Below are positions 38,287 to 54,594 of a stretch of 64,000 nucleotides of DNA, one piece after another (within the stretch, counting starts at the first letter, position 1; each line of letters begins with the position of its first letter). This DNA comes from an uncultured Gammaproteobacteria bacterium (lineage in GTDB: Bacteria; Pseudomonadota; Gammaproteobacteria; Ga0077536). Where the stretch lies: NCBI GenBank assembly GCA_963976285.1, contig CAXBJY010000008.1:14414-78413 (forward strand), given 5' to 3'. Position numbers and translations under genes: made by a program. The notes below the pieces were generated by a model. That model searched no databases and was not told the origin of the DNA. It saw only the letters and a program-made list of their open reading frames with translations.

Positions 38287-38387
38287 ATCGCTTCCTCGCT
38301 CGCTCGCTGTGACCGCGGTGGCGCGCCTGCTGTGGCAGGTTCACGCGTGGTGGTTGTGCCGCGGTCGTTTGCAGATAAAATTGTATG

Positions 38388-38402: not shown

Positions 38403-38471
38403 GATGCCCCGGATGACGTCTGCTACGCACGCCACACCATTGTGACTTCCTCATCAAAACGTGTCAGCCGC

Positions 38472-39219: not shown

Positions 39220-40512
39220 TCAGACGATCAGTACGGGCCGATCGCTGAATTCGCCGTCGACATCGAGCGGCAGCACGTGCGCATTACCGCCGCGTTTGCT
39301 CGGGGTGTCGTCGTATTCACGCAGCTCGAGCCGCGCGAGCTGATTGCGGTGCACTTCATCGGGACCGTCGGCGATACGAATCAGACGGGCGTTCGCATAG
39401 GCGAATGGCAGTCCGTAATCGGTCGTCACCCCGGCCGCGCCGAACGCCTGGATCGCCCAGTCGATCACCTGGCAGGCCATGTTCGGCACGACGACCTTGA
39501 TCATCGCGATTTCCTTGCGCGCGACCTTGTTGCCGACCGTGTCCATCATGTAGGCGGCCTTTAACGTCAACAGACGCGCCTGCTCGATCATGATCCGCGA
39601 TTCCGCGATGCGTTCCTGGGTGACGGTCTGCTCGGACACCGGCTTGCCGAACGCAACCCGCTGTTTCGTGCGCCGGCACATGCGCTCGAGCGCACGTTCG
39701 GCGGCACCGATCAGGCGCATGCAGTGGTGGATGCGACCGGGCCCGAGGCGGCCCTGGGCGATTTCGAAGCCGCGCCCCTCGCCGAGCAGCATGTTCGATA
39801 CCGGCACGCGGACGTTATCGAAATGCACTTCGGCATGGCCGTGCGGGGCGTCGTCGAAACCGAATACCGGCAGGATCCGTTTCATCTTGATCCCGGCCGT
39901 GTCCATCGGCACGAGCACCATCGATTGCTGTTCGTGACGGTTCGGGTTGTCGGGGTCGGTCTTGCCCATGACGATGAGAATCTTACAGCGCGGATCGGGC
40001 GCACCCGAGGTCCACCACTTGCGGCCATTGATCACATACTCATCGCCGTCGCGTTCGATGCTCGTTTCGATGTTCGTCGCGTCCGACGAGGCGACCTCGA
40101 TCTCCGTCATTGCGAACGCGGAGCGGATCTTGCCGTCGAGCAGCGGCTGCAACCAGTCGCGCTTGTGTTCTTCCGTGCCGTAACGCGCGATGACTTCCAT
40201 GTTGCCGGTGTCCGGGGCGGAACAATTGAACACTTCCGGCGCGAGCGGCGAACGACCCATTTCCTCGCACAGCGGCGCGTATTCGAGGTTCGTGAGACCG
40301 GCCCCGAGATCGCTCTCGGGCAGGAACAGGTTCCACAACCCGGCCGCTTTCGCTTTCTCTTTCAACTCCTCGAGCAGCGGGTACGGCGCCCAGCGATCGC
40401 CGTCGTCGATCTGCGCGAACATTTGCGCTTCGTTCGGATAGATGTGCTCGATCATGAACTCGCGCACTTGCGCGAGCAGTTGCTGGGTTTTGTCACTGTA
40501 CTCAAAGTTCAT
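39220..40512 (-). CDS. acyl-CoA dehydrogenase family protein
   Basis: Met 29 of track ORF, GGGGAGCG SD. …[39 protein letters not shown]… (ACAD middle-domain signature), C-terminal …[35 protein letters not shown]…. Confidence 0.85.
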
Positions 40513-40547
40513 CGTTTCGCTCCCCCACGGGAATTTGCTCCCGGTTA

Positions 40548-41735
40548 TTACAATCGTTCGATCAATGTCGCGTTCGCCATGCCGCCGCTTTCGCACATCG
40601 TCTGCAGGCCATAACGGCCGTTCGTCTGTTCGAGTGCGCGGATCAGGTTCGCGGTGAGCCGGCCGCCGGACGCGCCGACCGGATGGCCGAGCGCGATCGC
40701 GCCGCCGAAGCGGTTCAGGCGTTCGGGATCGGTATTGAATTCCTTCTCCCAGGCCAGCGGCACCGACGCGAACGCTTCGTTCACCTCGTACGCATCAATC
40801 TGATCGAGGCTCAATCCCGCGCGTTCGAGCAGTTTACGGGTGGCCGGAATGATCCCGGTCAACATCATGATTGGATCGTCGCCACTGACCGCGAAATGCG
40901 TGACCGCCGCGCGCGCCTGCAGGCCGAGACGTTCCGCCATACCCGCTTCCATAACGAGCATCGCGCTCGCGCCATCCGTCACCTGGCTCGCGTTCCCGGC
41001 CGTCACGGACCAGTTGATGTCGGGGAAGCGCGCCGCCATGTCCGCGTTTTCGAACGCGGCTTTCAGCGTACCGAGCTTCTCCAGGGTCGAGTTCGCGCGG
41101 ATCCCCTCGTCGCGCGCGACGAGCACCGTCGTACCGTCGCGCGCCGTTTCAATCGGCGCAATATCGCGCGCCGCATCGGCGCGATCCGCTTCCGCGCGCT
41201 GATGCGAGCGCAGCGCAAAGCGATCCTGGGTTTCGCGGTCGAGCTGCCAGCGCGCCGCGATCAACTCCGCGGAAATGCCCTGGCGCACGAGCCCTTCGGG
41301 GTAGCGCGCGTGAAAGCGGCTGCCCTCGTTATCCTTGCCCATGCGGTTCACCCGCATCGGTACGACGGACATCATCTCGACCCCGCCGGCGATCACGGCG
41401 TCATACGCGCCCGCGATCACGCCCTGCGCCGCGAAGTCGAGCGCCTGCTGCGCGGAGCCGCATTTGCGGTCGAGCGTCACCGCCGGCACGGACTCCGGAA
41501 AACCGGCCGCGAGCACGGCCTGGCGTCCGATGTTGCCGGACTGTTCGGCCACCTGTATCACGCAACCGCTGATCACGTCGTCGACGATCGCCGGGTCGAT
41601 GCCCGTACGTTCAATCAACGCCGCGAGCACGTGCGCGTACAGGTTCACCGGGTGCAGGCTCGCGAGCGCGCCGTCTTCGCGCGCGCGGCCAAACGGCGAG
41701 CGCACGATATCGACAATCACGGCGCGGCGAGTCAT
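40548..41735 (-). CDS. acetyl-CoA C-acyltransferase (thiolase)
   Basis: …[13 protein letters not shown] (active-site Cys), …NEAFASV…, …[11 protein letters not shown]…[13 protein letters not shown] (C-terminal Cys/His signatures). Confidence 0.85.
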
Positions 41736-41783: not shown

Positions 41784-43244
41784 TCAGGCATTTTTTCTCA
41801 GCGACAATTCGAGACCTTCCGTTTTCAGCTGCACGACCGGCGAGTTCGCGATGTTCATGAGCCGCCGCACCTGTTCGAGTTCGGGGCTCGACAGTAGCGG
41901 ATAGGTTTGTTTCACCGGGCCCGCGGCCCACATTTTCTTCAGATCGGCTTCCGGCACGAGCGCGCGCAGGATCAGTTCGTCGTCGTTGTCCGTGCCGTAT
42001 TGCTTGCGCAGATCCTCGATGCTCGGTTGCGGCGGCGGATTCGCCGCGACTTCCTTTGCCCGCGACGAGGACATGATCTTGTCGAGGATATTCGGATCGA
42101 TCGGCGCGGCCGGTTCGCCGTAGAACTTGCACGCATACTGCACGACCTCGTCCGGGACGACGGAGTAGCGCTCGCCGGTGACGATGTTCAGCACGGCTTG
42201 CGTACCGACGAGCTGGCTGAACGGGGTGGCCATGCCGGGATACCCGAGTTCGTGGCGCACGACGGCCGTTTCCGTCAGCACGTCGTCGAGACGATCCATC
42301 ATGTTCTGCTGCGCGAGCTGGGCCTTCAGGGTGCCGACCATGCCGCCCGGCACCTGGTGCTGGATCGACAGCACATCGTATTCCGCATACTGGTTCACGA
42401 GAAAACCCGCGGCCTTGCCCACTTGCTCGAAATGCCGGGAGACCGGCGGCACGAGGCTCATGTCGACATCGTGCGTGTGCCCGAGCAGTTCGAGATTGCG
42501 GGTCATGATTTCGACCGATGGCACGGACGGCCCGTTCGCCATCGGCCGCACGGCCGTGTGCAGGATCGTGACCCCGAGGTCGACGGCGTCGAGATAGGCT
42601 TTCGCGGATTGGCCGAGCAGGTTGTTCGAATGGAACTCGATCGGTTTGCCGCGCGATTTTTCGATGATCGCCGGCAGCAGGGTCGTCAGGCGTTCCTTCT
42701 CCAGCACCCCGGCCGTGTCGTAGAGCAGGATCGTGTCGATGTCGGGACACACGGACAATTTATCGGCCTTGTCGGCGTAGTACTCGTCCGTGTGCACGGG
42801 GCTCAAGGTGAACATGATCGCGCCGGCGACTTCGGAGCCGAACTCCTTCGCGACTTTCGCGAGGCGATGCGTCTTGTCGTTATTGAACAGCACGTCGTAG
42901 ACCCAGAAGCTGCGGCAGCCGTGCACGTTCAGTTGCCGCATCCACGCATCCATGAGCGCATCCGGGGTGACCCCGAACGTGACCGAGGCATTCGAGCGCA
43001 TGCCCGCGCGGATCGGGGTGCGCGGCATCGCCGCGGCCATCAGGTCGAGACCTTCCCACGGGTTTTCCTGGCAGTGCCGGATCATCACCTCGAACATGGA
43101 CGAGCCCGTCAGGTCGATCACGCGGTAGCCGCTGCGGTCGATCATCGGCGCCACGGGTAACGCCATGCCGGCCTGCATGCGCATTCCCCACAGACTCTGT
43201 TGTCCGTCGCGCATCGTTTCGTCGAGCAGTTCGATATGGGCCAT
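41784..43244 (-). CDS. 5S-type carboxyltransferase subunit (oxaloacetate decarboxylase alpha / pyruvate carboxylase B-subunit-like TIM barrel + conserved carboxylase domain; no biotinyl domain)
   Basis: ATG (aa 4 of track ORF) with AAGGAG SD 10 nt upstream. MAHIELLDETMRDGQQSLW (the RDxxQS motif of pyruvate carboxyltransferase domains). 5-nt gap to the upstream biotin carboxylase gene. Confidence 0.75.
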   Translation of the reverse strand: MAHIELLDETMRDGQQSLWGMRMQAGMALPVAPMIDRSGYRVIDLTGSSMFEVMIRHCQENPWEGLDLMAAAMPRTPIRAGMRSNASVTFGVTPDALMDAWMRQLNVHGCRSFWVYDVLFNNDKTHRLAKVAKEFGSEVAGAIMFTLSPVHTDEYYADKADKLSVCPDIDTILLYDTAGVLEKERLTTLLPAIIEKSRGKPIEFHSNNLLGQSAKAYLDAVDLGVTILHTAVRPMANGPSVPSVEIMTRNLELLGHTHDVDMSLVPPVSRHFEQVGKAAGFLVNQYAEYDVLSIQHQVPGGMVGTLKAQLAQQNMMDRLDDVLTETAVVRHELGYPGMATPFSQLVGTQAVLNIVTGERYSVVPDEVVQYACKFYGEPAAPIDPNILDKIMSSSRAKEVAANPPPQPSIEDLRKQYGTDNDDELILRALVPEADLKKMWAAGPVKQTYPLLSSPELEQVRRLMNIANSPVVQLKTEGLELSLRKNA

Positions 43245-43249
43245 TGCCG

Positions 43250-44617
43250 TCAAGCTCCTTCAGTTTGAAAGCCGCTGAGCACGCTTTGTTCGAGCCAGCG
43301 GGTAGAAATTTCGTTAGCCATAAAGTCCGGGTGTTTCACGATGTGCCGGAGCAGCGGCAGGTTCGTCACGATGCCGTCGATCGTGAATTCGTCGAGCGCC
43401 GCGGCGAGGCGTTCGACCGCGCTCGCGCGATCGTTCGCGGTGACGATCAGTTTGCCGATCATCGAGTCGTAGTACGGCGGTACGAGGTAGCCGTCGGCGC
43501 AGTGGCTGTCGACCCGGATCCCGGCGCCACGCGGCGGCTGCCACGACGTGATCCGGCCCGGGCTCGGGCGAAAATCGTGCGCCGCGTCCTCGGCGTTGAT
43601 GCGGCATTCGATCGAATGCCGGCTTACCGTGATCGCCGACTGATCGAAGCTCACGGGCTCGCCACCGGCAACCCTGAACTGCAGTTGCACGAGATCGGCG
43701 CCGGTCACCTGTTCGCTCACCGGATGCTCCACCTGGATCCGCGTATTCACCTCGATGAAGAACACTTCTTCATGGTCGACGTCGTAGAGAAACTCGACCG
43801 TGCCGGCATTGCGGTATTTCAGCTTCGACAGCAGGTTCACCGCGGCCGCATGCAGCTTGCCGCGCACGTGTTCCGGCATGATCGCGCACGGCGCTTCCTC
43901 GATCACCTTCTGGTAACGCCGCTGCGTGGAACAGTCTCGCTCACCGAAATGCACGACCTGCCCGGTGCCGTCGCCGAGCACTTGCACTTCGACGTGACGC
44001 GCATTGCCGACGAAGCGCTCCATATAGAGCGTGCCGTCGCCGAATGCTTCGAGCGCTTCGGTACTCGCCTTGTCGAACGACCCGGCGAGATCCGCCGGGG
44101 TGCGCGCGATGAACATGCCGCGCCCGCCGCCGCCGGCCGACGCTTTCATGACGACCGGATAGCCGATGTCCTCGGCCGCCCGTTGCGCGCTCTGCACATC
44201 GGCGATCGAATCCGTGCCGGGCACGAGCGGCACCCCGGCTTCGGCGGCGATCGCGCGCGCCCGCAGTTTGTCGCCGAGCGCGTCGATCACGTCCGCATCC
44301 GGCCCGACGAATGTGATGTCGTGCTCGCGGCACAGGTTCGCGAGCGACGCGCGCTCCGACAGGAAACCGTAGCCGGGATGCAGCGCGTCGCAGCCCGTTT
44401 GTTGCGCCGCGTGCAGCAGCAGTTTCGCCTCGAGATAACTCTGTTTCGATGGCGCCGGCCCGATCACGACCGCGCGATCGGCGAGACGCGCGGCGGCGCT
44501 GTCGCGATCCGCTGCGGATAACACCTGCACGGTTTCGATCCCGAGCGCCTGCGCGGCACGAATGATGCGCACGGCGATTTCGCCCCGGTTCGCGACGAGC
44601 ACCCGGTTTATCGGCAT
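43250..44617 (-). CDS. biotin carboxylase (ATP-grasp; AccC-like, 455 aa)
   Basis: MPINRVLVANRGEIAVRIIRAAQALGIETV…GYGFLSE…, glycine-rich loop GGGGRGM, typical BC. Confidence 0.85.
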   Translation of the reverse strand: MPINRVLVANRGEIAVRIIRAAQALGIETVQVLSAADRDSAAARLADRAVVIGPAPSKQSYLEAKLLLHAAQQTGCDALHPGYGFLSERASLANLCREHDITFVGPDADVIDALGDKLRARAIAAEAGVPLVPGTDSIADVQSAQRAAEDIGYPVVMKASAGGGGRGMFIARTPADLAGSFDKASTEALEAFGDGTLYMERFVGNARHVEVQVLGDGTGQVVHFGERDCSTQRRYQKVIEEAPCAIMPEHVRGKLHAAAVNLLSKLKYRNAGTVEFLYDVDHEEVFFIEVNTRIQVEHPVSEQVTGADLVQLQFRVAGGEPVSFDQSAITVSRHSIECRINAEDAAHDFRPSPGRITSWQPPRGAGIRVDSHCADGYLVPPYYDSMIGKLIVTANDRASAVERLAAALDEFTIDGIVTNLPLLRHIVKHPDFMANEISTRWLEQSVLSGFQTEGA

Positions 44618-44677: not shown

Positions 44678-45184
44678 TCAGGCGCCCGGTTCGATGATCA
44701 CGAGCAGTTGCCCGAACTCGACCATCTGCCCGTCTTCGATACAGATCTCGCGCACGACCCCGGCGGTCCCGGCGCTGACGGGGGTAAACAGTTTCATCAC
44801 CTCGATCAGGCACACTTCCGTGCCCGGCTCAACGGCCTGGCCCACTTCGACGTACGGTGGCGCACCGGGCTTCGGCGCGCGGTAGAACGTACCGAGGTTC
44901 GGCGCGGTGATCCCGATCATGCCGTCCGGCACCGTGGCGGCAGCACTCGCTGGAGCAGCCCCTGCAACGGGCGCCGGCTCACCCGGAGCGGCCGCGGGCG
45001 CGGTGGCAGCGGGCGGGGTCGCGGCGATGGCCGCCGGCGCGGCCGGCGCCGCCGGTCCGCTCGCTTGCGGATCGTTCGACAGGAAAATTTCCAGCCCGTC
45101 CGTCTTTACATACAGTTCGTCCCAGTCGGACTGGTTGAACAATTCGACCAGATTGTCGACGTCTCGCGGATCAGGATTGGCCAT
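44678..45184 (-). CDS. biotin carboxyl carrier protein (AccB-like) with Ala/Pro-rich linker
   Basis: C-terminal biotinyl domain …GTEVCLIEVMKLFTPVSAGTAGVVREI… (EVMKL in place of the canonical EAMKM biotinylation motif); long PAAPAAPAA linker. Confidence 0.75.
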   Translation of the reverse strand: MANPDPRDVDNLVELFNQSDWDELYVKTDGLEIFLSNDPQASGPAAPAAPAAIAATPPAATAPAAAPGEPAPVAGAAPASAAATVPDGMIGITAPNLGTFYRAPKPGAPPYVEVGQAVEPGTEVCLIEVMKLFTPVSAGTAGVVREICIEDGQMVEFGQLLVIIEPGA

Positions 45185-45218: not shown

Positions 45219-46967
45219 TCAGGTTTGTTCACGGTGCAGTGCATACAGCAAGACCGGCAGCACATGGCCGGCGACGATCTGTTGCACCCCGGCAGTCAGC
45301 GCGGCGTCGAGTCCGGCATCGCTTTCGAGCGCGCCACCGGTGACGCTCTTCGCCTCGCCGATCAGCGCACCGAGGCGTTCCGGATCTTCGCCGCCCTCGA
45401 GCGTGTTCAGGTCGAGCGTGTCCGGCGGCACCCCGTCGGCTTTCGCGATCACGCGCAGCGGACACAGGCGACTCGCCCATGCCGTCAGCGTCGCGAGCGC
45501 CGGATCGTCGAATTCGTTCGGGTGCACGACCGCGAGTTCGCCGTCGTAGACCTTGCCACTGATCCCGTCCACCGTAACCGTGCGCTCGGCGAGTTGGGCC
45601 ACGCTGCCCTCGCCGCAACCGACGATGCACGGCACCCCGAGCGCGCGGCTCACGACCGCCGCGTGGGACGTCGAACCGCCGTGATCGGTGACGACGGCGA
45701 CGCTCGCAATCATGCCGTGCACGTCTTCGGGACTCGTACTCGGCCGCGCCAGTACCACCGCCTCACCGGCGGCGGCGCGCGTTTCCGCCGCGTCCGCGTT
45801 CGTCACGACGACCCCGGCCCCGACACCCTGGCACGCCGGTTCACCGCTTGCGAGCACGGTGGCGGCATCGGCCGCGCCAGGCGCGAGGTGTGGCTGCAAT
45901 AATGTGCGCACCTGTTCGGCGGACACGCGCGACAGCGCCGTGGCTTCATCGATCAAACCGTCGGCGACGAGGTCGAGCGCAAAGCGCACGGCCGCGGCCG
46001 GCGCGCGCTTCGCGGCGCGTGACTGCAACAGGAACAACTGTCCCTGCTGCACCGTGAACTCGATGTCCTGTACGTCCGCGCCGTCGCGTTCGAGCACGGC
46101 GGCGGCGGCGAGCAGTTCGTCGTGCACCGCGGGCAGCGCCTCGCGCAGGCTCGACAGCGGCTCCGGCGTGAACTTGCCGGACACGACGTCTTCGCCCTGC
46201 GCGCGGTGCAGGTATTCCCCGTAAGGTTCGCGATCGCCGTTCAGCGGATTGCGACTGAACAGGACGCCGGTGCCGGAGTTGTCGTCGAGATTACCGAACA
46301 CCATCGCCTGGATCGTGACCGCGGTGCCGAGGTTCTCCGGCAGATTGTGATGCTTGCGGTAACGCCGCGCGCGGCGCGAATTGCACGAATCGAACACGGC
46401 CGTCACGGCGTCGTGCAACTGCTCGCGCGCGCCGTCGGGGACGGACTTGCCGGCGGCGCGCGCGATCTCCGCGAGCCAGCTGGCCGGCTCGGCATCGGCA
46501 GCGAGCGCCGGCACCGTCGCCTTCATGACGATCCCGGCATACAGTTCAAGGAAGCGGCGGTGCGTGTCGCGCGCGAACGCAGCGCTGCCGGACTGGGCCG
46601 CGAGCGCGGCTTCCGTGTCGGCGTTAATACCGAGATTCAGCACCGTGTCCATCATGCCCGGCATCGAGATCGCCGCGCCCGAACGCACCGACACGAGCAG
46701 CGGCGATCCGCCGTGACCGAACGTGCGGCCGCTCTGCGCTTCGAGCCAGGCGATCGCCGTGTCCAGTTCTTCGACGAGGCCGTCCGGCATGGCCCCCGTG
46801 TCGAGATAGGCGGCGCACGCCTCGGTTGTGACCACGACGGCCGGCGGCACGTTCAGGCCGAGTTCGCGCATGCGCGCGATCGACCACGCCTTGCCCCCGA
46901 TCAACTCGCGCGACGGCAGCGAGCTGCCATCGATCGTGACTATCCATTTTCCGCCTGGCGCCGTCAT
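45219..46967 (-). CDS. PPDK/PEP-synthase-like protein: N-terminal nucleotide-binding (ATP-grasp) domain + phosphohistidine swivel domain, lacking the C-terminal PEP/pyruvate TIM-barrel
   Basis: …LIGGKAWSIARM…PLLVSVRSGAAISMPGMMDTVLNLGIN… (PPDK_N signature); …VVTDHGGSTSHAAVVSRALGVPCIVG… (PEP-utilizers His domain). Confidence 0.7.
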   Translation of the reverse strand: MTAPGGKWIVTIDGSSLPSRELIGGKAWSIARMRELGLNVPPAVVVTTEACAAYLDTGAMPDGLVEELDTAIAWLEAQSGRTFGHGGSPLLVSVRSGAAISMPGMMDTVLNLGINADTEAALAAQSGSAAFARDTHRRFLELYAGIVMKATVPALAADAEPASWLAEIARAAGKSVPDGAREQLHDAVTAVFDSCNSRRARRYRKHHNLPENLGTAVTIQAMVFGNLDDNSGTGVLFSRNPLNGDREPYGEYLHRAQGEDVVSGKFTPEPLSSLREALPAVHDELLAAAAVLERDGADVQDIEFTVQQGQLFLLQSRAAKRAPAAAVRFALDLVADGLIDEATALSRVSAEQVRTLLQPHLAPGAADAATVLASGEPACQGVGAGVVVTNADAAETRAAAGEAVVLARPSTSPEDVHGMIASVAVVTDHGGSTSHAAVVSRALGVPCIVGCGEGSVAQLAERTVTVDGISGKVYDGELAVVHPNEFDDPALATLTAWASRLCPLRVIAKADGVPPDTLDLNTLEGGEDPERLGALIGEAKSVTGGALESDAGLDAALTAGVQQIVAGHVLPVLLYALHREQT

Positions 46968-46977: not shown

Positions 46978-47580
46978 CTATTCGTCGCGCACGCGTGCGA
47001 GCACGCGCAGCAGGTCTTCGTGCAGTTCGAACCACACCGTGTGGTAACTCTCGATCGTCGCGTCGCTCACCCATGCCGGGTCGCCGTCTTCCGCGCGCTC
47101 GAGCGCGTGTTCGAGTTTCTCACCATAACGCGCGAAGCGCGGCGCGGATGCGGCGAACGTTTGCACGATCGGCTCGAAGCGCTCATGGATAGCCGCGAGC
47201 CGGTCGAGGATCGCCGCATCGTAATCGGGATCGCTGTGATCGTTCGGCATCGCCTGGCCGCCGATATCGACGAGCTGCCAGTCCGTGATCGCCTGTTTCA
47301 ATTCTGTATTGATCAACTCGAACCGATCGTAAGCCGCGACGAACGCCGGATCATCCCGCAATGCCGCGCAACGCACGGGATACTGGCCCTCGAGGATCAT
47401 GTGCCCGGCCGGGGTGAGCAGGTATTTGCCCTGCGCCGCGGCCGCGCGCCCCGTGTTGACAGCCCGTTCGAGCAGGGGCGCGAGTGCCGCCTGCGGCTGC
47501 CCCGTCAGTTCGGCGAGCGCGGCGGCATCGGCGTGTTTCTTGATCGCGATGGCGTGCAGCAGTTCGTGCATCGTGTTCAT
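46978..47580 (-). CDS. hypothetical protein (200 aa), translationally coupled (ATGA overlap) to the upstream ~520-aa gene
   Basis: MNTMHELLHAIAIKKHADAAALAELTGQPQAALAPLLERAVNTGRAAAAQGKYLLTPAGHMILE… no recognisable catalytic motif; possible winged-helix-like N-terminus. Confidence 0.5.
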   Translation of the reverse strand: MNTMHELLHAIAIKKHADAAALAELTGQPQAALAPLLERAVNTGRAAAAQGKYLLTPAGHMILEGQYPVRCAALRDDPAFVAAYDRFELINTELKQAITDWQLVDIGGQAMPNDHSDPDYDAAILDRLAAIHERFEPIVQTFAASAPRFARYGEKLEHALERAEDGDPAWVSDATIESYHTVWFELHEDLLRVLARVRDE

Positions 47581-49139
47581 TCGCCGCTCCTGCGCAGGCG
47601 TTCGACGTCGTCACGCGAGAGCCCCGCGCCGGCGCCCTTGAGGCGCCGGGAGTGGATCTGATCGAGACCATACAGTTCGTCCGCGAGTGGCGTGTGCGCG
47701 TTGTACTTGACCCAGGTTTCACACAGGTGACGGTATTTGTCCGTGCACACCTGCGGCACGAACTCGCGCGCGCGGCGATTGTATTCCGCGAGCCCGAGCA
47801 CCCCGGCCGAGGTCGTGTAGCGATCGATTTTCGGCGGCAGATGCGTGATCCCGGGCTGCAGTTCACCGCACGTGCGCGTGAAGTTGCCGTCGGCGAGGAT
47901 CGAATACGGGATGTGCGAGTACACGCGGGTCGGCGCGTTCGAATGCTTCATCATGTTGTAGCCGTGCAGTTGCTGCGACGGGTTCGAGATATAGCCGACG
48001 AGTTCGCCGAGCACGGCGTTCGCGTACTCGTCATTGAACAGCGGCCGGAAACGCTCGGCGCGTTCGTCGACCATCATCCAGTCTTCCACCGCGTAGACCC
48101 CGGCGACGTGCGCGAGATCCTTGACGATGCCGAAGTACACCATCGCCCCGGCGTCGATCATCTGATCGCGCGACCAGCCGGCGATCCGCCGCCACAGTTT
48201 CGACGTCGCGTCTTTCACCCGCACGGTCAGATCCTCGAACGCCTCGGTGAGCGTTTCGCGGCTGTCCATGGCCACGGGGACGTAACCTTCCGTGAGTACA
48301 TCGGACGTGTACAGGCCCACCCCGACGACATGGTGTGCCTTGAACTCGGGCTCCGATTCGAACGAACCCCAGTCGTCCATCAGGTAGAAATGACAGCCTT
48401 CGACGGCCATCGGCACGGTGAGGTTGTTGTACGGCACGTCGGCGGCGACGTCGTCGAGCCAGGGAAAGTCGCTCTCCGAAAGATCCATGTAATCGCGCAC
48501 GATCATCTCGCGCGTGTCCGACAATTTATACGGCCCGGAATTATGCAGGCTCACCCGGCTTTCGCAGGAAATGAGGAAGCCGTACTGCGATGCCGCCGCC
48601 ATGAACGCCTGCGCGGCGGTATGCAGGCGATCGCCCTCGCGGCATTCATACATATCGGCGTGAAACACCTGCAGCCGGCGTTCCGGCAGCAGTTGCGCGC
48701 GATGACCGTATTCGCTGTTTGTAATGTGACCGTCGTTGCGGTGCCAGGAGAGCTGAAAGCGCTTCCAGAAATCCATCACCGTAATGAGGTCTTCCACCGC
48801 GTCCGTCGGCCTGAGCAAGCCCATGTTCATGAGCAGTTCGCGCCCGAGCAGGTAGAACGACAAGCCCCAGCCCATGCTCGGGTTCTGGATCTTGATCCCC
48901 ATGTTGCGCGCGCGATCGCCGATGTCCTCGGCCGGCAGCGCGCGATCGATTTTGCGCAGCAGCTCCGGGTAGCGATAGAACGCCATCATGTAGGACAGCA
49001 ACATGTACGGCGACACGGGGAACAGTTTCGACTCCTGCACCGTGCGGGTGAGGCACAGCCAGTACGTCTCGTCCGCGAGTTGCTGGATCAGCGTGTTCGT
49101 CTCGAGCAGTTGTTCGTAGCTGATCCGCTTGTCGGTCAT
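47577..49139 (-). CDS. hypothetical protein (~520 aa; no recognisable domain); start uncertain (ATG 49139 or GTG 49160)
   Basis: Coding-like, aromatic-rich composition (MTDKRISYEQLLETNTLIQQLADETYWLCLTRT…); embedded between the two PEP-utilizing-enzyme modules. Confidence 0.5.
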   Translation of the reverse strand: MTDKRISYEQLLETNTLIQQLADETYWLCLTRTVQESKLFPVSPYMLLSYMMAFYRYPELLRKIDRALPAEDIGDRARNMGIKIQNPSMGWGLSFYLLGRELLMNMGLLRPTDAVEDLITVMDFWKRFQLSWHRNDGHITNSEYGHRAQLLPERRLQVFHADMYECREGDRLHTAAQAFMAAASQYGFLISCESRVSLHNSGPYKLSDTREMIVRDYMDLSESDFPWLDDVAADVPYNNLTVPMAVEGCHFYLMDDWGSFESEPEFKAHHVVGVGLYTSDVLTEGYVPVAMDSRETLTEAFEDLTVRVKDATSKLWRRIAGWSRDQMIDAGAMVYFGIVKDLAHVAGVYAVEDWMMVDERAERFRPLFNDEYANAVLGELVGYISNPSQQLHGYNMMKHSNAPTRVYSHIPYSILADGNFTRTCGELQPGITHLPPKIDRYTTSAGVLGLAEYNRRAREFVPQVCTDKYRHLCETWVKYNAHTPLADELYGLDQIHSRRLKGAGAGLSRDDVERLRRSGE

Positions 49140-49149
49140 CGTCGGGTGC

Positions 49150-49905
49150 TCAGGCTTCACCGGCGCGCGCGTGACGCCAGATCCGCGCCGTCATCGCGAT
49201 GCCCTGCTGGTAGGCTTCGGCCGTTTTCGCCGCCGCGGTCGTCTCCATGATGACCGTATCGCCCTCGATGATGTCGGCCACTTTCGCGTTCATGAAACAC
49301 GGGATGCCGTATTCGCGGGTGAGGATGCCGAGGTGTGAGCGCACCGTGCCGCCGGCGCAGATCACCCCGGCGAACTGCTCGAGGATCGGCGCGGTTAACG
49401 TGCCACCGGAATCGTCGATGACGGCAATCGTGCCGGGTGGCACGCCGTCGCTCAGGTATTTCAGCACGCGATCGCTCGAGCGCAGGTAGCGCGCCGTGCC
49501 CGTCGTGTACTCGGGATAGCCGACGACGTTATCCCCGATCCCGCACAACACCCGGCCGTCTTCGTCGGTTTCCGGGGTCGGCGCTTCCGGGTGGGCAAAA
49601 CTGAATTGCGTCGCGTCGTCGTCGAGCCCCTCGGCGGGCTTGTACGCCTCCGGTCGCTCGCGGACCGAGGCGAGCGCGGACCAGTCGTAGCGATGGCCGA
49701 GTTCGAGCAGGCGCGCATCGATTGCGCGCAGGGCCCCGGCGTCGATCACGGACGGCGCACTGCCGAACACGAACGCGTCCCAGGTTTCACCGCTCGTCGC
49801 GAGATGTTCGCGCACGCGGGTTTTGATGGCGGCATGGAAGGCCTCGACGATGGCGAATTCAGCTTCGTCGCCGTACTTGTCCCCATCGTTGTAGTGGCTC
49901 GCCAT
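49150..49905 (-). CDS. PEP-utilizing-enzyme mobile (phosphohistidine swivel) domain protein with ~150-aa N-terminal region of unknown function
   Basis: Met 80 of track ORF 49150..50142 (MASHYNDGDKYGDE…). C-terminus …ICAGGTVRSHLGILTREYGIPCFMNAKVADIIEGDTVIME… = PEP-utilizers domain. Confidence 0.6.
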   Translation of the reverse strand: MASHYNDGDKYGDEAEFAIVEAFHAAIKTRVREHLATSGETWDAFVFGSAPSVIDAGALRAIDARLLELGHRYDWSALASVRERPEAYKPAEGLDDDATQFSFAHPEAPTPETDEDGRVLCGIGDNVVGYPEYTTGTARYLRSSDRVLKYLSDGVPPGTIAVIDDSGGTLTAPILEQFAGVICAGGTVRSHLGILTREYGIPCFMNAKVADIIEGDTVIMETTAAAKTAEAYQQGIAMTARIWRHARAGEA

Positions 49906-50300
49906 GGCATCCCCATCGATCCGCTTGAACCCGTCCGCCCGGCGCTGCTCGCGGCTCTTGATTGTGCGCGAACGGGGTCCGGCAGGATGTCGTAGTTTGG
50001 AATTCGTGTCAAACCTGATAGGACGATATTGTCCTACAATCCGGACCATACCGGGTGCCAAAATCGCCCGCCTCGCGACCCCGCTCGCACCGCTCCCGCG
50101 ACCCTGGCCATGGCCATGAAGCCGGCGCACGAACGCCGCCAATCACCGCCGCCGGGTACCTGCCAGCCGCCCCGCCAGCGCGCGCGGGTACCGCCGTTGG
50201 CACGGGCTGCCAAAGCGCCGCGGTAGCGCCACCGGCCACCGCCCCGGCGCAACTTGAACGGCGCGTTCTTCGCCGTGAGAATAGGTGAGCGAAACTTCCA

Positions 50301-51122
50301 ATGGAGATCGAGCACATGGCCAGCAGCGCCGCCGCAACCGCCAGCCCCGCAGTCCCCGTGATCCGCACGGATAACGCCGGGATCACGCAATTGATGCTGA
50401 ACGACCCGGACAAGTACAACACGCTGTCGCGCGAAGTCATCGACGACATGCTCACGCATCTCGACAACATCGCCGCCGATGAATCGGTGCGCGTGGTCGT
50501 GATCGCGGCCCGCGGCAAGGCGTTTTGCAGCGGTCACAACCTGAAGCAGATGCACGCAAACCACGATCGGGCCTACTACGAGGCCCTGCTGACGGACTGC
50601 TCGCGCATGATGCAGAGCATTGTTGCGCTGCCGCAGCCGGTGATTGCCCGGGTGCAGGGCATCGCCACGGCGGCCGGTTGCCAGCTCGTCGCGAGCTGCG
50701 ATCTCGCCATCGCCGCGGCGAGCGCCGCGTTCGCCACGAACGGGATCAACAACGGCCTGTTCTGCGCCACCCCGGCGGTGGCCGTCAGCCGCACGGTCGC
50801 GCGCAAGCACGCGCTCGAAATGCTGCTCACGGGCGATTTCGTCGACGCAGCGCGGGCGGCGGACATCGGCCTCGTCAATCACGTCGTCCCCGATGACGAA
50901 CTCGATGCCGCTATCGACGCGCTCGCGGGCAAACTCGCCGGCCAGTCGCAGTATGCGCTGCGTCTCGGCAAGGCCTCGTTCAATCGCCAGTTGCACGAAC
51001 CGCTCGACCGCGCGTATCGCGGCGCCGCGAGCGATCTCGTGTGTAACCTGCTCGCCGACGACGGGGTCGAGGGGGTCACCGCGTTTCTCGAGAAACGTAA
51101 ACCGCGGTGGCAGAACGACTAG
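50301..51122 (+). CDS. enoyl-CoA hydratase/isomerase family protein
   Basis: …VVVIAARGKAFCSGHNLKQM…, …VIARVQGIATAAGCQLVASCDLAIAA… (crotonase fold oxyanion-hole segments). Confidence 0.8.
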   Translation: MEIEHMASSAAATASPAVPVIRTDNAGITQLMLNDPDKYNTLSREVIDDMLTHLDNIAADESVRVVVIAARGKAFCSGHNLKQMHANHDRAYYEALLTDCSRMMQSIVALPQPVIARVQGIATAAGCQLVASCDLAIAAASAAFATNGINNGLFCATPAVAVSRTVARKHALEMLLTGDFVDAARAADIGLVNHVVPDDELDAAIDALAGKLAGQSQYALRLGKASFNRQLHEPLDRAYRGAASDLVCNLLADDGVEGVTAFLEKRKPRWQND

Positions 51123-51394
51123 CAGGCCGGCAGCATCGAACCCGTCGCGTTGCGCGCAGAACATATATATAAAGACGCCGCGCGGCGAACACGACAACGC
51201 CGACAGCGCCGACAGCGCTGCCCCCGGCACCCGGGCGGCGGGGTCGCGGCGCTTATCGAGGACGTTGACGTCAGTCATCGATAATTTTTCCGGCTGAATG
51301 TCGCTCCTCGCGCCCAGGAATGCGTAATAATGGCTCCCGGCGCGAACCCATTCAGTCACCAGGATCGCCTCTACTAAGAAATCGGACCGACACC

Positions 51395-53038
51395 ATGAGC
51401 ACATCGACAAACATCTACGAACAAGACCTGCCGAAGGTTGAAGCGAACTACACCCCGCTGTCGCCGCTGAGTACGATCGAGCGCGCGGCCTCCGTGTATC
51501 CCACCCAGCTTGCCGTCGTCCACGGCGATCGCGAGTTCACGTGGGCGGAAACGTTCGCGCGCTGCCGCCAGCTCGCCTCCGCGCTGAGCCAGCGCGGGAT
51601 CGGCCTCGGCGACACGGTCGCCGTACTCGCGACGAATATCCCGGCGTTCTACGAAGGCCTGTTCGGGATCCCGGCCACGGGCGCCGTGATCAACCCGATC
51701 AACATCCGCCTCGATGCCGAAGCCATCGCGTTCATTCTCGACCACGGCGAAGCGAAGGTGCTGTTCACGGATACGGAATTCGCGCCGGTCGTGAGCGAGG
51801 CGCTGAAAATCTGCAAAGTGAAACCGCTCGTGATCGACATCGCCGACGAAGCGGCGCATTGCCACGACCGGATCGGCGAGATCGAATACGAGGACTTCAT
51901 CGCGGCCGGCGATCCGGAGTATCCATGGGAACTGCCGAAGGACGAATGGCAGGCCATCGCGCTGTGCTACACGTCCGGCACCACCGGCAACCCGAAGGGC
52001 GTGGTCACGCATCACCGCGGCGCGTACCTGAATGCGATTGGCAACATCATGGCGTGGACCCTGCCGCACAACCCGGTGTACCTGTGGACCTTGCCGATGT
52101 TTCATTGCTGCGGCTGGTGCTACCCGTGGTCGATCGCGATGCAGGGCGGCACGAACGTATGCCTGCGACGGATCGCGGCGGCGGATATCTACGACGCGAT
52201 CGACCGCCACGGGGTGACGCATTTCTGCGGCGCGCCGATCGTGCTGAATTTCATCGTCAACGCGAGCGAAGAAGAAAAGTGCGTGCCGAAGACCCCGATC
52301 AACGTGATGACCGCCGGGGCCGCGCCGCCGGCGGCGATCCTGAAATCGATGGCCGATCAGGGCTTCAAGGTGACGCACGCCTATGGCCTGACGGAAGTTT
52401 ACGGCCCGGCCGTGTTCACGGCGCACCAACCGTCGTGGGATTCGCTGTCGAGCCTCGAACTCGCGGAAAAACGCATCCAGCAGGGCGTGCGCTACAACGT
52501 GCTCGAGGATCTCGACGTGCTCGACCCGGAGACGATGAAGCCCGTGCCGCGTGACGGCGAGACGATCGGTGAAATCATGTTCAAGGGCAATGTCGTCATG
52601 CGCGGTTATCTGAAAAACCCGAAGGCGACGCAGGAATCGCTCGCGGACGGCTGGTTTCACTCCGGCGACCTCGGGGTGATGCACCCGGAGAACTATATCC
52701 AGCTGAAGGACCGCTCGAAGGACATCATCATTTCCGGCGGCGAGAATATCTCCTCGATCGAAGTCGAAGAAGTGTTGTACAAACACCCGCACGTGCTCGA
52801 AGCCGCCGTCGTCGCGCGGCCGGACGAAAAGTGGGGCGAGACGCCGTGCGCGTTCGTGGCCCTGAAACCATCGGCACCGGACGTGAGCGCGGACGAGCTG
52901 ATCAAGTATTGCCGCGAGCACATCGCGCACTTCAAAGCGCCGAAGACGATCGTTTTCCGCGAACTGCCGAAAACCTCGACCGGCAAGATCCAGAAATTCA
53001 AACTGCGGGTTGAAGCCGACGAGATGGGATCGCTGTAA
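51395..53038 (+). CDS. AMP-dependent synthetase/ligase (acyl-CoA synthetase)
   Basis: Met within track ORF 51320..53038. …YTSGTTGNPKGV (AMP-binding motif), …YGLTEV…, …GWFHSGDLG…, …ELPKTSTGKIQK (C-terminal Lys motif). Confidence 0.8.
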   Translation: MSTSTNIYEQDLPKVEANYTPLSPLSTIERAASVYPTQLAVVHGDREFTWAETFARCRQLASALSQRGIGLGDTVAVLATNIPAFYEGLFGIPATGAVINPINIRLDAEAIAFILDHGEAKVLFTDTEFAPVVSEALKICKVKPLVIDIADEAAHCHDRIGEIEYEDFIAAGDPEYPWELPKDEWQAIALCYTSGTTGNPKGVVTHHRGAYLNAIGNIMAWTLPHNPVYLWTLPMFHCCGWCYPWSIAMQGGTNVCLRRIAAADIYDAIDRHGVTHFCGAPIVLNFIVNASEEEKCVPKTPINVMTAGAAPPAAILKSMADQGFKVTHAYGLTEVYGPAVFTAHQPSWDSLSSLELAEKRIQQGVRYNVLEDLDVLDPETMKPVPRDGETIGEIMFKGNVVMRGYLKNPKATQESLADGWFHSGDLGVMHPENYIQLKDRSKDIIISGGENISSIEVEEVLYKHPHVLEAAVVARPDEKWGETPCAFVALKPSAPDVSADELIKYCREHIAHFKAPKTIVFRELPKTSTGKIQKFKLRVEADEMGSL

Positions 53039-53213: not shown

Positions 53214-54566
53214 TTAACGCTCACGAAAACCCTCGTCGCGGTAGCGCAATAACGGCGCGGCGAGGAATTCGATCAGGCGGCGGCGACCGAGTTTGATCTC
53301 CACCGTCACCGCCATCCCCGGCGCGAGATTCGCGACCCGGTCGGCGGTCTCGATCGTCGTGCGCTCGAGGCTCACTTGCGCCGGATACACGAGCCCCTGC
53401 TTCTCATCCGCGATCGCATCGTGCGCGACATGTGTAATGCGGCCGTCGATCGTGCCGTATTGCGTGAACGGGAACGTCTCGACCTTGATCTCCGCGTGCT
53501 GGCCCGCGCGCACGAAGCCGGCGTCGCGGTTCGTGACGAACGCCTCGACGACGAGCGCGCCATCGAGCGGCACGAGCAACATCAGTTGTTCCGCCGGGGT
53601 GACGACTCCGCCGATCGTATGCACGGAGAGCTGGTGCACCGTGGCCGCCTCCGGCGCGCGCAGAACGCGCTCCCGGATCTGCATTTCCGCCTTGCCGATC
53701 TCGGGTTCGATCGCGGCGAGTTCCGTTGCGAGCGTTGCCCGCGATTCGATCAGCCGCGAGCGTTCGCCGGCGGCGAGCGCGCGCAAACGCCTTAGCAAAC
53801 CGGCATGCGCGGCATCGAGCGCGGCGAGGCGCGCGCCGACGATACCGCGCTCGCGCTCGGTTTCGAGTCGCGGGATCTCGAGTTCAAACCAGCTCGCGCG
53901 CGACGCGAGCGAACGCGCTTCGAGTTGTGCCAGCGCGTTCGCGCGTTCCGTGAGCAGCGGCAAGGTCGCGTCGAGCATGGCAAGACGCCGTTCGCTGGCG
54001 AGACGTTCCGCGCGGTTCTCCGCGGCCGCGTCCTCGAGTGCCGCGCGCTCGGCGTAATGCGCTTCGAGCTGGCTGTCGATGCGGCGCCGGATCGCCATCG
54101 GCGTGGCCGCGATCGCCACGTTCAGTGGATGCCCGGGCGCGCGATCGAGGTAAGCGGCCGCGGTCGGGAACGCCGCGAACGCGCGTAACTGCAATTCCAG
54201 TGCGCGCAGTTCCGCGGCCATCGCATCGCGCGCAACGCGCAGGCGGCGCAAGTCGGCGCGAGATTTCTCGTCGTCGAGCTGGATCAGCGGATCGCCGGCG
54301 GCGACCGTCTCGCCTTCGCGCACATGGATCGCACTGACCACCCCGGCCTCGAGCGGCTGCACCGTCTTCACCCTGCCGGTGGGGACGATCCGGCCTTGCG
54401 CGACGGCCACGACATCCACCCGCCCGAGCACGGACCAGCCGAGCGCGAACGCAAACAACGTCATCACGCTCCACAGGATCGCGCGCGACGCCGGCAGCGG
54501 CGGCGTGTGTTCCACTTCGAGCACGGCCGGCAGAAACGCGCAAGACTCACGCGAGCGGGACATCAC
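53214..54566 (-). CDS. HlyD family type I secretion periplasmic adaptor subunit
   Basis: N-terminal TM, long coiled-coil (…RALELQLRAFAAF…), C-terminal beta-barrel/lipoyl-like …VTVEIKLGRRRLIEFL…. Confidence 0.8.
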   Translation of the reverse strand: MMSRSRESCAFLPAVLEVEHTPPLPASRAILWSVMTLFAFALGWSVLGRVDVVAVAQGRIVPTGRVKTVQPLEAGVVSAIHVREGETVAAGDPLIQLDDEKSRADLRRLRVARDAMAAELRALELQLRAFAAFPTAAAYLDRAPGHPLNVAIAATPMAIRRRIDSQLEAHYAERAALEDAAAENRAERLASERRLAMLDATLPLLTERANALAQLEARSLASRASWFELEIPRLETERERGIVGARLAALDAAHAGLLRRLRALAAGERSRLIESRATLATELAAIEPEIGKAEMQIRERVLRAPEAATVHQLSVHTIGGVVTPAEQLMLLVPLDGALVVEAFVTNRDAGFVRAGQHAEIKVETFPFTQYGTIDGRITHVAHDAIADEKQGLVYPAQVSLERTTIETADRVANLAPGMAVTVEIKLGRRRLIEFLAAPLLRYRDEGFRER

Positions 54567-54594
54567 TCGCCCCCTGGATGCGCGGCGTGAAGCA

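Follow-up and report, generated by a model that had tools for sequence, protein, structure and literature searches.

Results

Gene organization of the locus

The 64-kb window, i.e., the whole stretch of DNA that was analyzed, carries four consecutive minus-strand genes whose products we designate S251, X520, Y200, and PPDK582, together with genes for a three-subunit biotin-dependent carboxylase and several further enzymes. The relevant features are as follows.

36685-37473, plus strand: SurE-family phosphatase (Pfam and NCBIfam SurE), a paralog recurring with the cluster; candidate dephosphorylation enzyme
37498-38286, minus strand: short-chain dehydrogenase, recurring after the thiolase in gammaproteobacterial loci
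38385-39131, plus strand: GntR/FCD-family regulator, recurring beside the cluster
39220-40596, minus strand: acyl-CoA dehydrogenase, present in some related loci but not in others
40548-41735, minus strand: thiolase, whose place after the carboxyltransferase gene is conserved among type-1 loci (see below)
41784-43253, minus strand: carboxyltransferase (CT) of the pyruvate carboxylase beta/oxaloacetate decarboxylase alpha/transcarboxylase 5S type
43250-44617, minus strand: biotin carboxylase (BC), by Pfam and NCBIfam
44678-45184, minus strand: biotin carboxyl carrier protein (BCCP), PF00364 and TIGR00531 above cutoff
45219-46967, minus strand: PPDK582, truncated pyruvate-phosphate-dikinase (PPDK) homolog with ATP-grasp and swivel domains and lacking the PEP/pyruvate TIM barrel
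46978-47580, minus strand: Y200, 200 aa, with a winged helix followed by a four-helix bundle; proposed to link X to the truncated PPDK as an adaptor
47577-49139, minus strand: X520, 520 aa, lacking a Pfam or NCBIfam match; proposed acceptor-substrate-binding and phosphotransfer subunit
49150-49905, minus strand: S251, predicted 251-aa phosphohistidine carrier with PF00391 at its C terminus
50301-51122, plus strand: enoyl-CoA hydratase, divergently transcribed
51320-53038, plus strand: AMP-forming acyl-CoA synthetase, divergently transcribed

The genes for S251, X520, Y200, and PPDK582 are translationally coupled. More specifically, the stop codon of S251 (49152-49150) is followed by exactly 10 nt (gcacccgacg) and then by the ATG of X520, the stop codon of which (TGA, 47579-47577) overlaps the ATG of Y200 (47580-47578) on the minus strand (gcgaATGAacacg); the stop codon of Y200 lies at 46980-46978 and, 10 nt on, PPDK582 begins with an ATG at 46967. 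Both the ATGA overlap of the 520-aa and 200-aa reading frames and the 10-nt gap after the swivel-domain gene had been reported in an earlier, sequence-only reading of this DNA, and inspection of the sequence showed them to be real. The ATG start of X520 is backed by 520-aa homologs of 98% identity. The window as a whole encodes a kinase, BCCP, BC, CT, a phosphatase, and a CoA ligase along with an enzyme for C-C cleavage, and these genes recur in related loci. The NCBIfam names of the thiolase, acyl-CoA dehydrogenase, short-chain dehydrogenase, and regulator gave no hint of the substrate; the CT is of a type that acts on the carbon adjoining a keto group. A palindrome in the divergent promoter (TAGGAC-N6-GTCCTA, 6+6) is shared only by the nearest relative and is at chance level.

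Two conserved swivel histidines in S251 and PPDK582

S251 consists of an N-terminal helical domain of ~120 to 150 aa that matched no family, followed by its sole Pfam/NCBIfam match, a PEP-utilizers mobile domain (residues ~156 to 221 of the ATG-start protein). The presumptive phosphocarrier residue His191, in the motif GGTVRSH, is invariant in 60 aligned homologs and is kept in 81 of 81 tblastn matches. PPDK582 matched PF01326 (PPDK_N, ATP-grasp) at an E value of 2e-39 and scored 719.8 bits against NF004531 (PRK05878; cutoff 456) over residues 6 to 580, and PPDK structures aligned with it at an E value of 1e-112. That alignment covers residues ~1 to 550 of the 874-residue PPDKs and no PEP-utilizers_C match was obtained, in agreement with the earlier claim that this PPDK-like protein lacks the TIM barrel. 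Its swivel motif (PF00391), GGxT[S/C/A]H, is kept in 53 of 53 homologs. Two features of the swivel-histidine dikinases (PPDK, PEP synthase, RPH, and PpsAB/HpeHI), namely, an ATP-grasp domain (PPDK582) and a GGxxxH swivel (present twice), are encoded at the locus. Enzymes of this superfamily turn ATP into AMP, the beta-phosphate being left on the acceptor. The histidine codons are located as follows.

45663-45665, minus strand: His435 codon of PPDK582, predicted autophosphorylation site by analogy with PPDK His455 and VadK His422
49333-49335, minus strand: His191 codon of S251, predicted phosphocarrier histidine

X520 and Y200

Neither X520 nor Y200 gave a significant match in Pfam, in NCBIfam, in phmmer searches against the PDB, or in profile searches against the PDB. 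Consistently, the first reading had found no motif that could be placed in the 520-aa protein, the 200-aa protein, or the first ~150 aa of the 251-aa protein. The predicted model of X520 is confident (pLDDT 95.5), and comparison with solved structures found no relative, the fold being neither a TIM barrel nor a rifampin-binding domain. A confident model that has no solved relative indicates that X520 does not belong to a known enzyme class. The residues invariant across the X family are mostly arginines. Remote homology of X520 to a substrate domain of the rifampin-phosphotransferase type, which had been suggested as a check, was found neither by sequence nor by fold.

In the model of Y200, a winged helix makes up the N-terminal part and a four-helix bundle the C-terminal part, which ends in the motif SYHTVWFELHEDLL; conservation in the Y family is highest in this helical bundle, not in the recognition helix. 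Although the fold is MarR-like, no Pfam MarR match was obtained at E ≤ 0.01; DNA binding by Y200 is possible given this fold. Full-length homology was detected to 200- and 201-aa proteins encoded on plasmids of M. avium and M. branderi (E values of 1e-43 and 6e-46). These homologs sit directly after truncated PPDK genes, i.e., in the position of Rv1126c beside VadK (Rv1127c), and at the mycobacterial plasmid loci the kinase and Y are accompanied by another kind of swivel protein, which does not resemble X. Mycobacterial "PEP-utilizing enzymes" of 503 and 543 aa were considered as X-like candidates and rejected (hhalign probability 0.2).

Conservation across genomes and natural fusions

A scan of 185,579 species genomes yielded 391 loci, and homologs of the three proteins numbered more than 970 (X), 1,590 (Y), and 2,576 (S); the alignment used to scan genomes for X was restricted to close X members. 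Gene neighborhoods were counted in 80 loci of other genomes. S immediately precedes X in all of the 75 loci that have enough flanking sequence, and in 58 of 63 loci Y follows at a distance of no more than 2.3 kb, a gene arrangement far beyond chance. PPDK, BCCP, BC, and CT genes are all present in 36 of 45 loci. In contrast, eight of the 45 (type 2) carry S-X-Y with neither PPDK nor carboxylase nearby, so the genes of the S-X-Y unit need not lie close to that of its proposed partner. Conserved synteny with the truncated PPDK extends across Gamma- and Alphaproteobacteria and into Rhodococcus. Between X and Y, most other loci have an AMP-binding gene, distinct from the acyl-CoA synthetase gene of the window.

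Natural fusions join the same three proteins. X-Y (520+200) fusions occur among close relatives (P0108, P0110, P0241, and P0243), S-X fusions occur as P0286, P0318, and Rhodococcus SX3, and S-X-Y fusions occur as P0377 (777 aa) and as a 793-aa protein of R. opacus B4. The X-like part of the S-X and S-X-Y fusions is distantly related to the first ~360 residues of X520, and in all three kinds of fusion the domain order equals the gene order in the window. The swivels fused to X-like domains are nearer to that of S251 (E values of 1e-11 to 1e-16) than to that of PPDK582 (1e-3 to 1e-5). Moreover, the sizes of S and X are paired, a long S accompanying a long X and a short S (117 to 126 aa) a short X (383 to 399 aa). 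The fusions and the conserved adjacency support the conclusion that S251, X520, and Y200 form one unit. A gene for a 214-aa protein downstream of an S-X fusion (L003) was ruled out as Y-like on comparison.

Phosphatase genes near the cluster

The SurE protein encoded in the window scores as an ordinary SurE nucleotidase. Its homologs (48 to 60% identity) are present in at least 20 other type-1 loci, and partial matches, truncated by the ends of the loci, were found in a few more. The 64-kb window contains no Y_phosphatase3 gene. Elsewhere, all type-2 loci have a Y_phosphatase3 gene immediately before S, alphaproteobacterial type-1 loci have one nearby, and both Rhodococcus clusters include one. 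The cluster of R. opacus B4 combines the genes for the S-X-Y fusion and a truncated PPDK with P450, ferredoxin, reductase, alcohol dehydrogenase, aldehyde dehydrogenase, and phosphatase genes, a set that we take to resemble the phosphorylation-initiated Cre pathway.

Discussion

Comparison with characterized systems

We found no description in the literature of the S/X/Y/PPDK gene combination. The closest likeness, at the level of the gene set, is to the hydroxyphenylethanone pathway, represented by HpeHI/HpeCBA/HpeD of Rhodococcus rhodochrous GD02 and AcvAB/AcvCDE/AcvF of Sphingobium sp. SYK-6, with homologous Xcc genes in Aromatoleum aromaticum EbN1. Common to these systems and the window are a multicomponent ATP-dependent dikinase, a three-subunit biotin-dependent carboxylase, a phosphatase, and an AMP-forming CoA ligase, as well as an enzyme that cleaves a C-C bond. 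HpeCBA accepts the ketone for carboxylation only in its phosphorylated form, after which HpeD strips the phosphate (PMC9618137). The Hpe kinase and that of the window both combine an ATP-grasp domain with a phosphohistidine swivel, but their components differ: no resemblance of X520 to the RPH-type domain of HpeH was detected in sequence or in fold, PPDK582 bears its own swivel His435 (PF00391) whereas HpeI is an ATP-grasp domain only, and the window has in addition the putative adaptor Y200 and a separate swivel protein. The substrate subunit homologous to the rifampin-binding and swivel domains of RPH and the swivel-free ATP-grasp subunit that define the two-component phenolic dikinases (HpeHI, AcvAB, CreHI, and PpsAB) are both lacking here. 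Likewise, the candidate phosphatases are of the SurE or Y_phosphatase3 type in the loci described here, as opposed to the HAD/NagD type in Hpe/Acv, and a thiolase takes the place of the Hpe/Acv beta-ketoacyl-CoA hydrolase.

Canonical PPDK and PEP synthase share with PPDK582 the ATP-grasp domain, the swivel, and a presumed swivelling-histidine mechanism, but only the canonical enzymes have the TIM barrel. The architecture of PPDK582 is instead that of VadK, which also has an ATP-grasp domain and a swivel histidine and no TIM barrel, and which would likewise belong to NF004531, the model for short PPDK-named proteins. VadK autophosphorylates on His422, retains Rv1126c during purification up to a wash with 2 M NaCl, and has been read as a kinase that regulates the methylcitrate cycle and has no substrate-binding partner or domain (PMC13400623). 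Both kinases adjoin a gene for a ~200-aa protein, and Y is likened to Rv1126c by gene position and through the plasmid homologs; however, the gene order is reversed, Y preceding the kinase in the window, and the window kinase, unlike VadK, shares its operon with S, X, and carboxylase genes.

A proposed four-protein dikinase

We consider it probable, albeit with moderate confidence, that S251, X520, and Y200 constitute the substrate-side half, and PPDK582 the nucleotide-side half, of a four-protein ATP-dependent dikinase that readies a ketone for carboxylation. In such an enzyme, the ATP-grasp domain of PPDK582 would bind ATP and phosphorylate the protein's own swivel residue His435, a step shown for the homolog VadK. 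The phosphoryl group would then pass to His191 of S251, either by His-to-His transfer or through docking of S251 on the ATP-grasp domain. We know of no precedent for His-to-His transfer in this swivel-dikinase family, and because PPDK582 keeps a swivel histidine that is not needed in HpeI or PpsB, the phosphoryl route is uncertain. S251 would next deliver the phosphoryl group to an arginine-rich site of X520 that holds the acceptor, as the domain fusions suggest. By binding the acceptor and receiving the phosphoryl group from S251, X520 would stand in for the missing TIM barrel. The sequence-only reading had put forward one of the unplaced proteins, most plausibly the 520-aa one, as just such a replacement substrate domain in a multisubunit dikinase; the fusions and synteny support this proposal, X520 carries no unrelated annotation, and no version of the locus lacks it. 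Y200 is proposed to be noncatalytic and to tether X520 to PPDK582, on the basis of its fusion to X and the salt-resistant association of VadK with Rv1126c in M. tuberculosis.

The acceptor is probably a hydroxyl group of a methyl ketone. The phosphorylated ketone would be carboxylated beside the carbonyl by BCCP, BC, and the pyruvate-carboxylase-type CT, and then dephosphorylated by the SurE-like enzyme (by Y_phosphatase3 in other genomes), after which the CoA ligase would activate the carboxylated product and the thiolase would cleave it.

The same four proteins could instead place the phosphoryl group on the enol oxygen of the ketone, with CT consuming the enol phosphate and releasing phosphate, so that no dedicated phosphatase would be involved. 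PPDK, the parent enzyme, makes an enol phosphate, the CT is of the pyruvate/oxaloacetate type, and the gammaproteobacterial type-1 loci, the window included, have no Y_phosphatase3 inside the operon. We nevertheless regard this variant as unlikely, as phosphatase genes recur beside S-X-Y in type-2, alphaproteobacterial, and Rhodococcus loci, X-like domains occur in the carboxylase-free, Cre-like oxidation cluster, where a lasting phosphate tag on a hydroxyl fits better, and the characterized analog Hpe retains its phosphate through carboxylation (PMC9618137).

It is more doubtful still that PPDK582 acts together with Y200 as a regulatory histidine kinase, with S251 as a phospho-acceptor that switches an X520 of unrelated chemistry and no small molecule being phosphorylated. 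The swivels of the PEP-utilizers type that are known as fused domains (PPDK, PEP synthase, EI, RPH, and HpeH) are all catalytic phosphoryl shuttles, the pairing of kinase with phosphatase recurs in the gene neighborhoods, and Hpe- and Cre-like gene sets require a substrate kinase, no other being encoded. These points are set against the two conserved histidines, which would suit a relay, the lack of a recognizable kinase-type motif in X, and the description of VadK as a regulatory histidine kinase interacting with methylcitrate-cycle enzymes (PMC13400623). Finally, that Y200 is merely a MarR-type transcription factor of the operon, with X520 alone being the missing dikinase domain, is very improbable, given that Y is fused to X or S-X in several lineages, that Y200 is translationally coupled within enzyme genes and most conserved outside its recognition helix, that a separate GntR regulator accompanies the cluster, and that Rv1126c, at the corresponding M. 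tuberculosis position, co-purifies with the kinase (PMC13400623).

Implications

The four-protein dikinase that we favor would give a testable function to three protein families now listed as hypothetical in databases, and the strict conservation of both of its swivel histidines makes a His-to-His relay conceivable, a mechanism undescribed in this enzyme family. MarK (UPF0261) of Novosphingobium aromaticivorans is an aromatic kinase that acts ahead of an Acv-type carboxylase (PMC12624787); it is a single protein, lacks a swivel histidine, and bears no relation to the proteins of the window. As another nonhomologous kinase, MarK shows that pathways of this kind have acquired their kinase on more than one occasion, and the enzyme proposed here would be a third nonhomologous solution, after HpeHI/AcvAB and MarK, for phosphorylation-dependent ketone carboxylation, which is of current interest for lignin valorization. 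The kinase proposed here also occurs in the Cre-like oxidation cluster.

More tentatively, S-X-Y and the truncated PPDK may represent an unrecognized class of metabolite dikinase, in which the phosphoryl group would pass from the swivel histidine of PPDK to a free-standing swivel protein and on to a substrate held by a domain of unsolved fold. By extension, VadK/Rv1126c might be the nucleotide-side half of such an enzyme, alongside or instead of its regulatory role, in which case the partner and substrate of this half are still to be discovered. The kinship of Y200 with the mycobacterial 200-aa proteins encoded after PPDK suggests that VadK-type truncated PPDKs may generally use separately encoded substrate modules, a possibility that bears on how VadK acts as a virulence factor of M. 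tuberculosis.

Organization of the S-X-Y operon

The genes encoding the 251-, 520-, and 200-aa proteins S251, X520, and Y200 (S, X, and Y) are part of a minus-strand operon in a genome of 65% G+C, which also encodes PPDK582, a truncated homologue of pyruvate-phosphate dikinase (PPDK).

Genes of the operon in the window
49905..49150, minus strand: S251, 251 aa, PEP-utilizers swivel domain at the C-terminus
49139..47577, minus strand: X520, 520 aa, without family match
47580..46978, minus strand: Y200, 200 aa, without family match
46967..45219, minus strand: PPDK582, PPDK-like, PPDK_N and swivel domains
45184..44678, minus strand: biotin carboxyl carrier protein (BCCP)
44617..43250, minus strand: biotin carboxylase (BC)
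43253..41784, minus strand: carboxyltransferase (CT)
41735..40548, minus strand: thiolase
40596..39220, minus strand: acyl-CoA dehydrogenase (ACAD)

Immediately outside the operon are genes for a GntR/FCD regulator, an SDR, and a SurE-family phosphatase; two divergently transcribed genes encode an enoyl-CoA hydratase and an AMP-forming acyl-CoA synthetase. The junctions described in the sequence-only reading are exact: X and Y overlap at an ATGA, and 10 nt separate the stop of S from the start of X. PPDK582 likewise starts 10 nt after the stop of Y. That reading could place no motif in X, in Y, or in the N-terminal ~150 residues of S, and we obtained no match for them in Pfam or NCBIfam. It also correctly described the PPDK-like protein as lacking its TIM barrel, as PPDK582 aligns to residues ~1 to 550 of 874-residue PPDKs and has no PEP/pyruvate domain. 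PPDK582 matches NCBIfam NF004531 across its entire length (719.8 bits; cut-off, 456).

X as the candidate holder of the second active site

From the sequence alone, it had been proposed that one of these proteins, most plausibly the 520-aa protein, may replace the missing substrate domain of the dikinase, forming a multi-subunit enzyme. Independent comparative evidence supports this proposal, the main argument being fusion of X to a swivel domain. More specifically, we identified (i) X-Y fusions among close relatives (P0108, 723 aa; P0110, 717 aa) and representative homologues (P0241 and P0243); (ii) an S-X-Y triple fusion (P0377, 777 aa) collinear with S251 residues 121 to 211, X520 residues 28 to 385, and Y200 residues 46 to 194; (iii) a second triple fusion, a 793-aa "PEP-utilizing enzyme" encoded on plasmid pROB02 of Rhodococcus opacus B4; and (iv) a distant group of ~360- to 400-aa proteins that match X residues ~12 to 360 only (25 to 36% identity), to which P0377 belongs and three members of which have an N-terminal PEP-utilizers swivel domain. 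The fused swivels are much closer to that of S251 (E 1e-11 to 1e-16) than to that of PPDK582 (E 1e-3 to 1e-5). To our knowledge, the sole role of a swivel domain is to shuttle a phosphoryl group between two active sites, and its fusion to X thus argues that X holds the second of these; we infer that X performs the phosphotransfer.

When encoded by separate genes, S and X covary in length, with S of 183 to 251 aa paired with X of 503 to 525 aa, and S of 117 to 126 aa paired with X of 383 to 399 aa. This pairing suggests that the N-terminal extension of S contacts the C-terminal extension of X. The proposed replacement role can be extended from a single protein to S, X, and Y together.

An AlphaFold2 model of X, generated from an 87-sequence alignment, was very confident (pLDDT, 95.5; pTM, 0.94). 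A Foldseek search of the whole PDB with this model returned no solved relative at E ≤ 1e-3, which rules out X as a TIM barrel, as the rifampin-binding domain of RPH/HpeH, or as any other solved enzyme fold. Seven residues (R32, Y45, G99, R195, G202, P203, and G347) are invariant in both the close and distant X families, and a further eight (R56, R78, R100, R127, R215, D123, D256, and D353) are almost invariant. This arginine-rich set would be compatible with phosphate handling.

Conservation and spread of the S-X-Y unit

We found >970 homologues of X (64 to 98% identity), all named "hypothetical" and none with a Pfam domain, as well as 1,590 of Y and 2,576 of S. A scan of one genome per species yielded 391 loci encoding X relatives, the majority in Gamma- and Alphaproteobacteria, with cultured carriers including Roseiarcus fermentans DSM 24875 and Chachezhania sediminis CAU 1508. 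At 94% amino-acid identity, the closest relative is an uncultured gammaproteobacterium. The cluster also occurs in Novosphingobium resinovorum SA1 and is plasmid-borne in Rhodococcus oxybenzonivorans S2-17 and R. pyridinivorans.

To quantify synteny, the window's proteins were mapped onto 80 retained loci, counting for each feature only loci with enough flank. S lies directly upstream of X in 75/75 loci, and Y lies ≤2.3 kb downstream of X in 58/63. A truncated PPDK follows downstream in 39 of 53 loci; the complete set of PPDK, BCCP, BC, and CT is present in 36 of 45 and entirely missing from 8. In the common (type-1) order, S and X are followed, in most genomes after an AMP-binding gene, by Y, PPDK, BCCP, BC, CT, and thiolase. 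A type-2 paralogue (~64% identical; loci L060 and L068 to L084, e.g., L071 8180-13006 and L084 3962-13072) has the order Y_phosphatase3, S, X, Y, SDR and lacks nearby PPDK and biotin carboxylase/carboxylase genes. It often shares a genome with a type-1 locus, as do L008 (type 1) and L071, both on OZ244144.1; presumably, type-2 loci borrow the PPDK subunit in trans.

In a Rhodococcus locus (L088 7902-12272) and a related metagenomic contig (L007 8428-12939), additional paralogous modules adjoin the full cluster, comprising short versions of S and X, an S-X fusion, and a DUF7065-like protein of 381 aa. These paralogues suggest that one PPDK subunit is common to several substrate modules. Plasmid RPME01 of Methylibium petroleiphilum PM1 (L093 8890-11779) encodes an X-like 415-aa protein, a 153-aa hypothetical protein, a 149-aa swivel protein, and a 190-aa "MarR family" protein. 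Their neighbors are a B12-binding protein, an AMP-binding protein, MeaB, and a mutase; these resemble 2-hydroxyisobutyryl-CoA mutase genes, although the record assigns them only to the methylmalonyl-CoA mutase family.

Two swivel histidines and a mycobacterial counterpart of Y

Both swivel histidines are strictly conserved: GGxT[S/C/A]H is retained in 53/53 homologues of PPDK582 and GG[T/S]xRSH in 81/81 homologues of S251. The S-X-Y system with PPDK582 thus has two swivel histidines, in contrast to the single one of known two-component dikinases, in which HpeI and PpsB have no swivel. The phosphoryl group could be handed from His435 of PPDK582 to His191 of S251; alternatively, S251 could dock straight onto the ATP-grasp domain.

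PPDK582 shares its truncated architecture with M. tuberculosis Rv1127c, renamed VadK in a 2026 paper (PMC13400623). According to this paper, VadK autophosphorylates on His422 in a reaction that depends on ATP and Mg, and its authors view it as a regulatory histidine kinase. A complementing substrate domain was stated not to be encoded in the M. tuberculosis genome, and co-expression of the operonic partner Rv1126c yielded more soluble VadK, with a 2 M NaCl wash needed to separate the pair (PMC13400623). On plasmids of M. avium (pP7a; L091 6968-9194) and M. branderi (pJCM12687; L092 7001-9186), the gene immediately after that for a truncated PPDK encodes a 201- or 200-aa protein, one of the two being annotated "MarR family". 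An HMM of Y homologues matched both proteins over their full length, with the DSYHTVWFELH motif covered (E 1e-43 and 6e-46); Y200 is thus a member of a small-protein family that accompanies truncated PPDKs in mycobacteria. Judging from gene position and size (presumably 201 aa), Rv1126c itself is likely to belong to this family. Since Y is fused to X in other lineages and the corresponding Rv1126c binds VadK tightly, Y is best read as an adaptor that would link the ATP-side and substrate-side subunits.

The swivel protein near the mycobacterial plasmid pair is different and not X-like, so the kinase-Y pair may serve more than one type of substrate module. This 503/543-aa protein has a C-terminal swivel and ~420 unrecognized N-terminal residues, and DUF7065/DUF7064 proteins are encoded in the same neighborhood.

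Pathway context

The CT belongs to the pyruvate carboxylase beta/oxaloacetate decarboxylase alpha/transcarboxylase 5S type, enzymes that carboxylate the carbon adjoining a keto group. The CT, CoA ligase, thiolase, and SDR genes form a set with parallels in the Hpe/Acv pathway, which acts on 4-hydroxyacetophenone and acetovanillone, and in the homologous Xcc genes. In Hpe/Acv, a dikinase phosphorylates the phenol, the phosphorylated ketone is the only form carboxylated by the biotin enzyme, and a phosphatase then strips the tag before a CoA ligase and a cleaving enzyme act (PMC9618137, PMC12167813, SYK-6 preprint).

Phosphatase genes recur around S-X-Y. In every type-2 locus, the gene immediately upstream of S encodes a Y_phosphatase3 enzyme; such a gene is ~5 kb upstream in the type-1 loci of Alphaproteobacteria and is also present in both Rhodococcus clusters. 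At least 20 type-1 loci have a SurE paralogue that is 48 to 60% identical to the one in the window, and its relative position in L032, L035, L051, and similar loci is as in the window. In R. opacus B4 (L090, plasmid pROB02, 305-14773), the S-X-Y fusion and a truncated PPDK occur together with a tyrosine-phosphatase-family gene, accompanied by a P450, ferredoxin, FAD reductase, alcohol and aldehyde dehydrogenases, and two APH-type phosphotransferases. We take this layout to mirror the phosphorylation-initiated 4-cresol (Cre) pathway, the CreHI kinase of which is confirmed in the cited literature.

All these contexts require a substrate kinase, and no other one is encoded. They favor a lasting phosphate tag on a hydroxyl group over an enol-phosphate variant of the same kinase. 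The family names of the flanking enzymes gave no substrate clue.

Comparison with known kinases

By analogy, the S-X-Y system with PPDK582 would work like a swivel-histidine dikinase supplying an Hpe-like carboxylation pathway. The missing TIM barrel excludes it from the canonical PPDKs. Nor is it a member of the HpeHI/AcvAB/CreHI/PpsAB family, because its substrate domain is unrelated to theirs and its ATP-grasp subunit retains the swivel. MarK has already filled the kinase step of such pathways independently once; thus, if our proposal holds, S-X-Y would be a third kinase solution for phosphorylation-dependent carboxylation. The mechanism class and pathway logic are already known; new are the predicted acceptor module without a solved fold relative, the putative adaptor, the two-histidine architecture, and the link to VadK. 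Literature searches found no published description of this gene combination.

Other features of the window

Using L084 proteins as tblastn queries, we detected two hydantoinase A/hydantoinase B pairs (acetone/acetophenone-carboxylase or oxoprolinase family) in the window, at 13363-17084 (minus strand) and 27006-30801 (plus strand). Such a pair adjoins the type-2 S-X-Y locus in L084, L077, and L079. Between the S251 and enoyl-CoA hydratase genes, the divergent promoter region contains a 6+6 palindrome, TAGGAC-N6-GTCCTA (~50013-50030), which we rejected as a conserved element because it recurs only in the nearest relative, L008, i.e., at chance level.

At the window end (58000-64000), G+C falls from ~65% to ~48 to 52%. 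The predicted products of this part are a P-loop protein that weakly matches KAP NTPase, a protein with a PIN_12 domain, and a fusion of an HNH nuclease to CTD11 of ABC-3C systems, and the region looks like a horizontally acquired defense island. Between the catabolic cluster and this low-GC island lie genes for type I secretion/bacteriocin export (53214-56865, minus strand), which encode an HlyD-family adaptor and an ABC transporter that contains a C39 peptidase domain.
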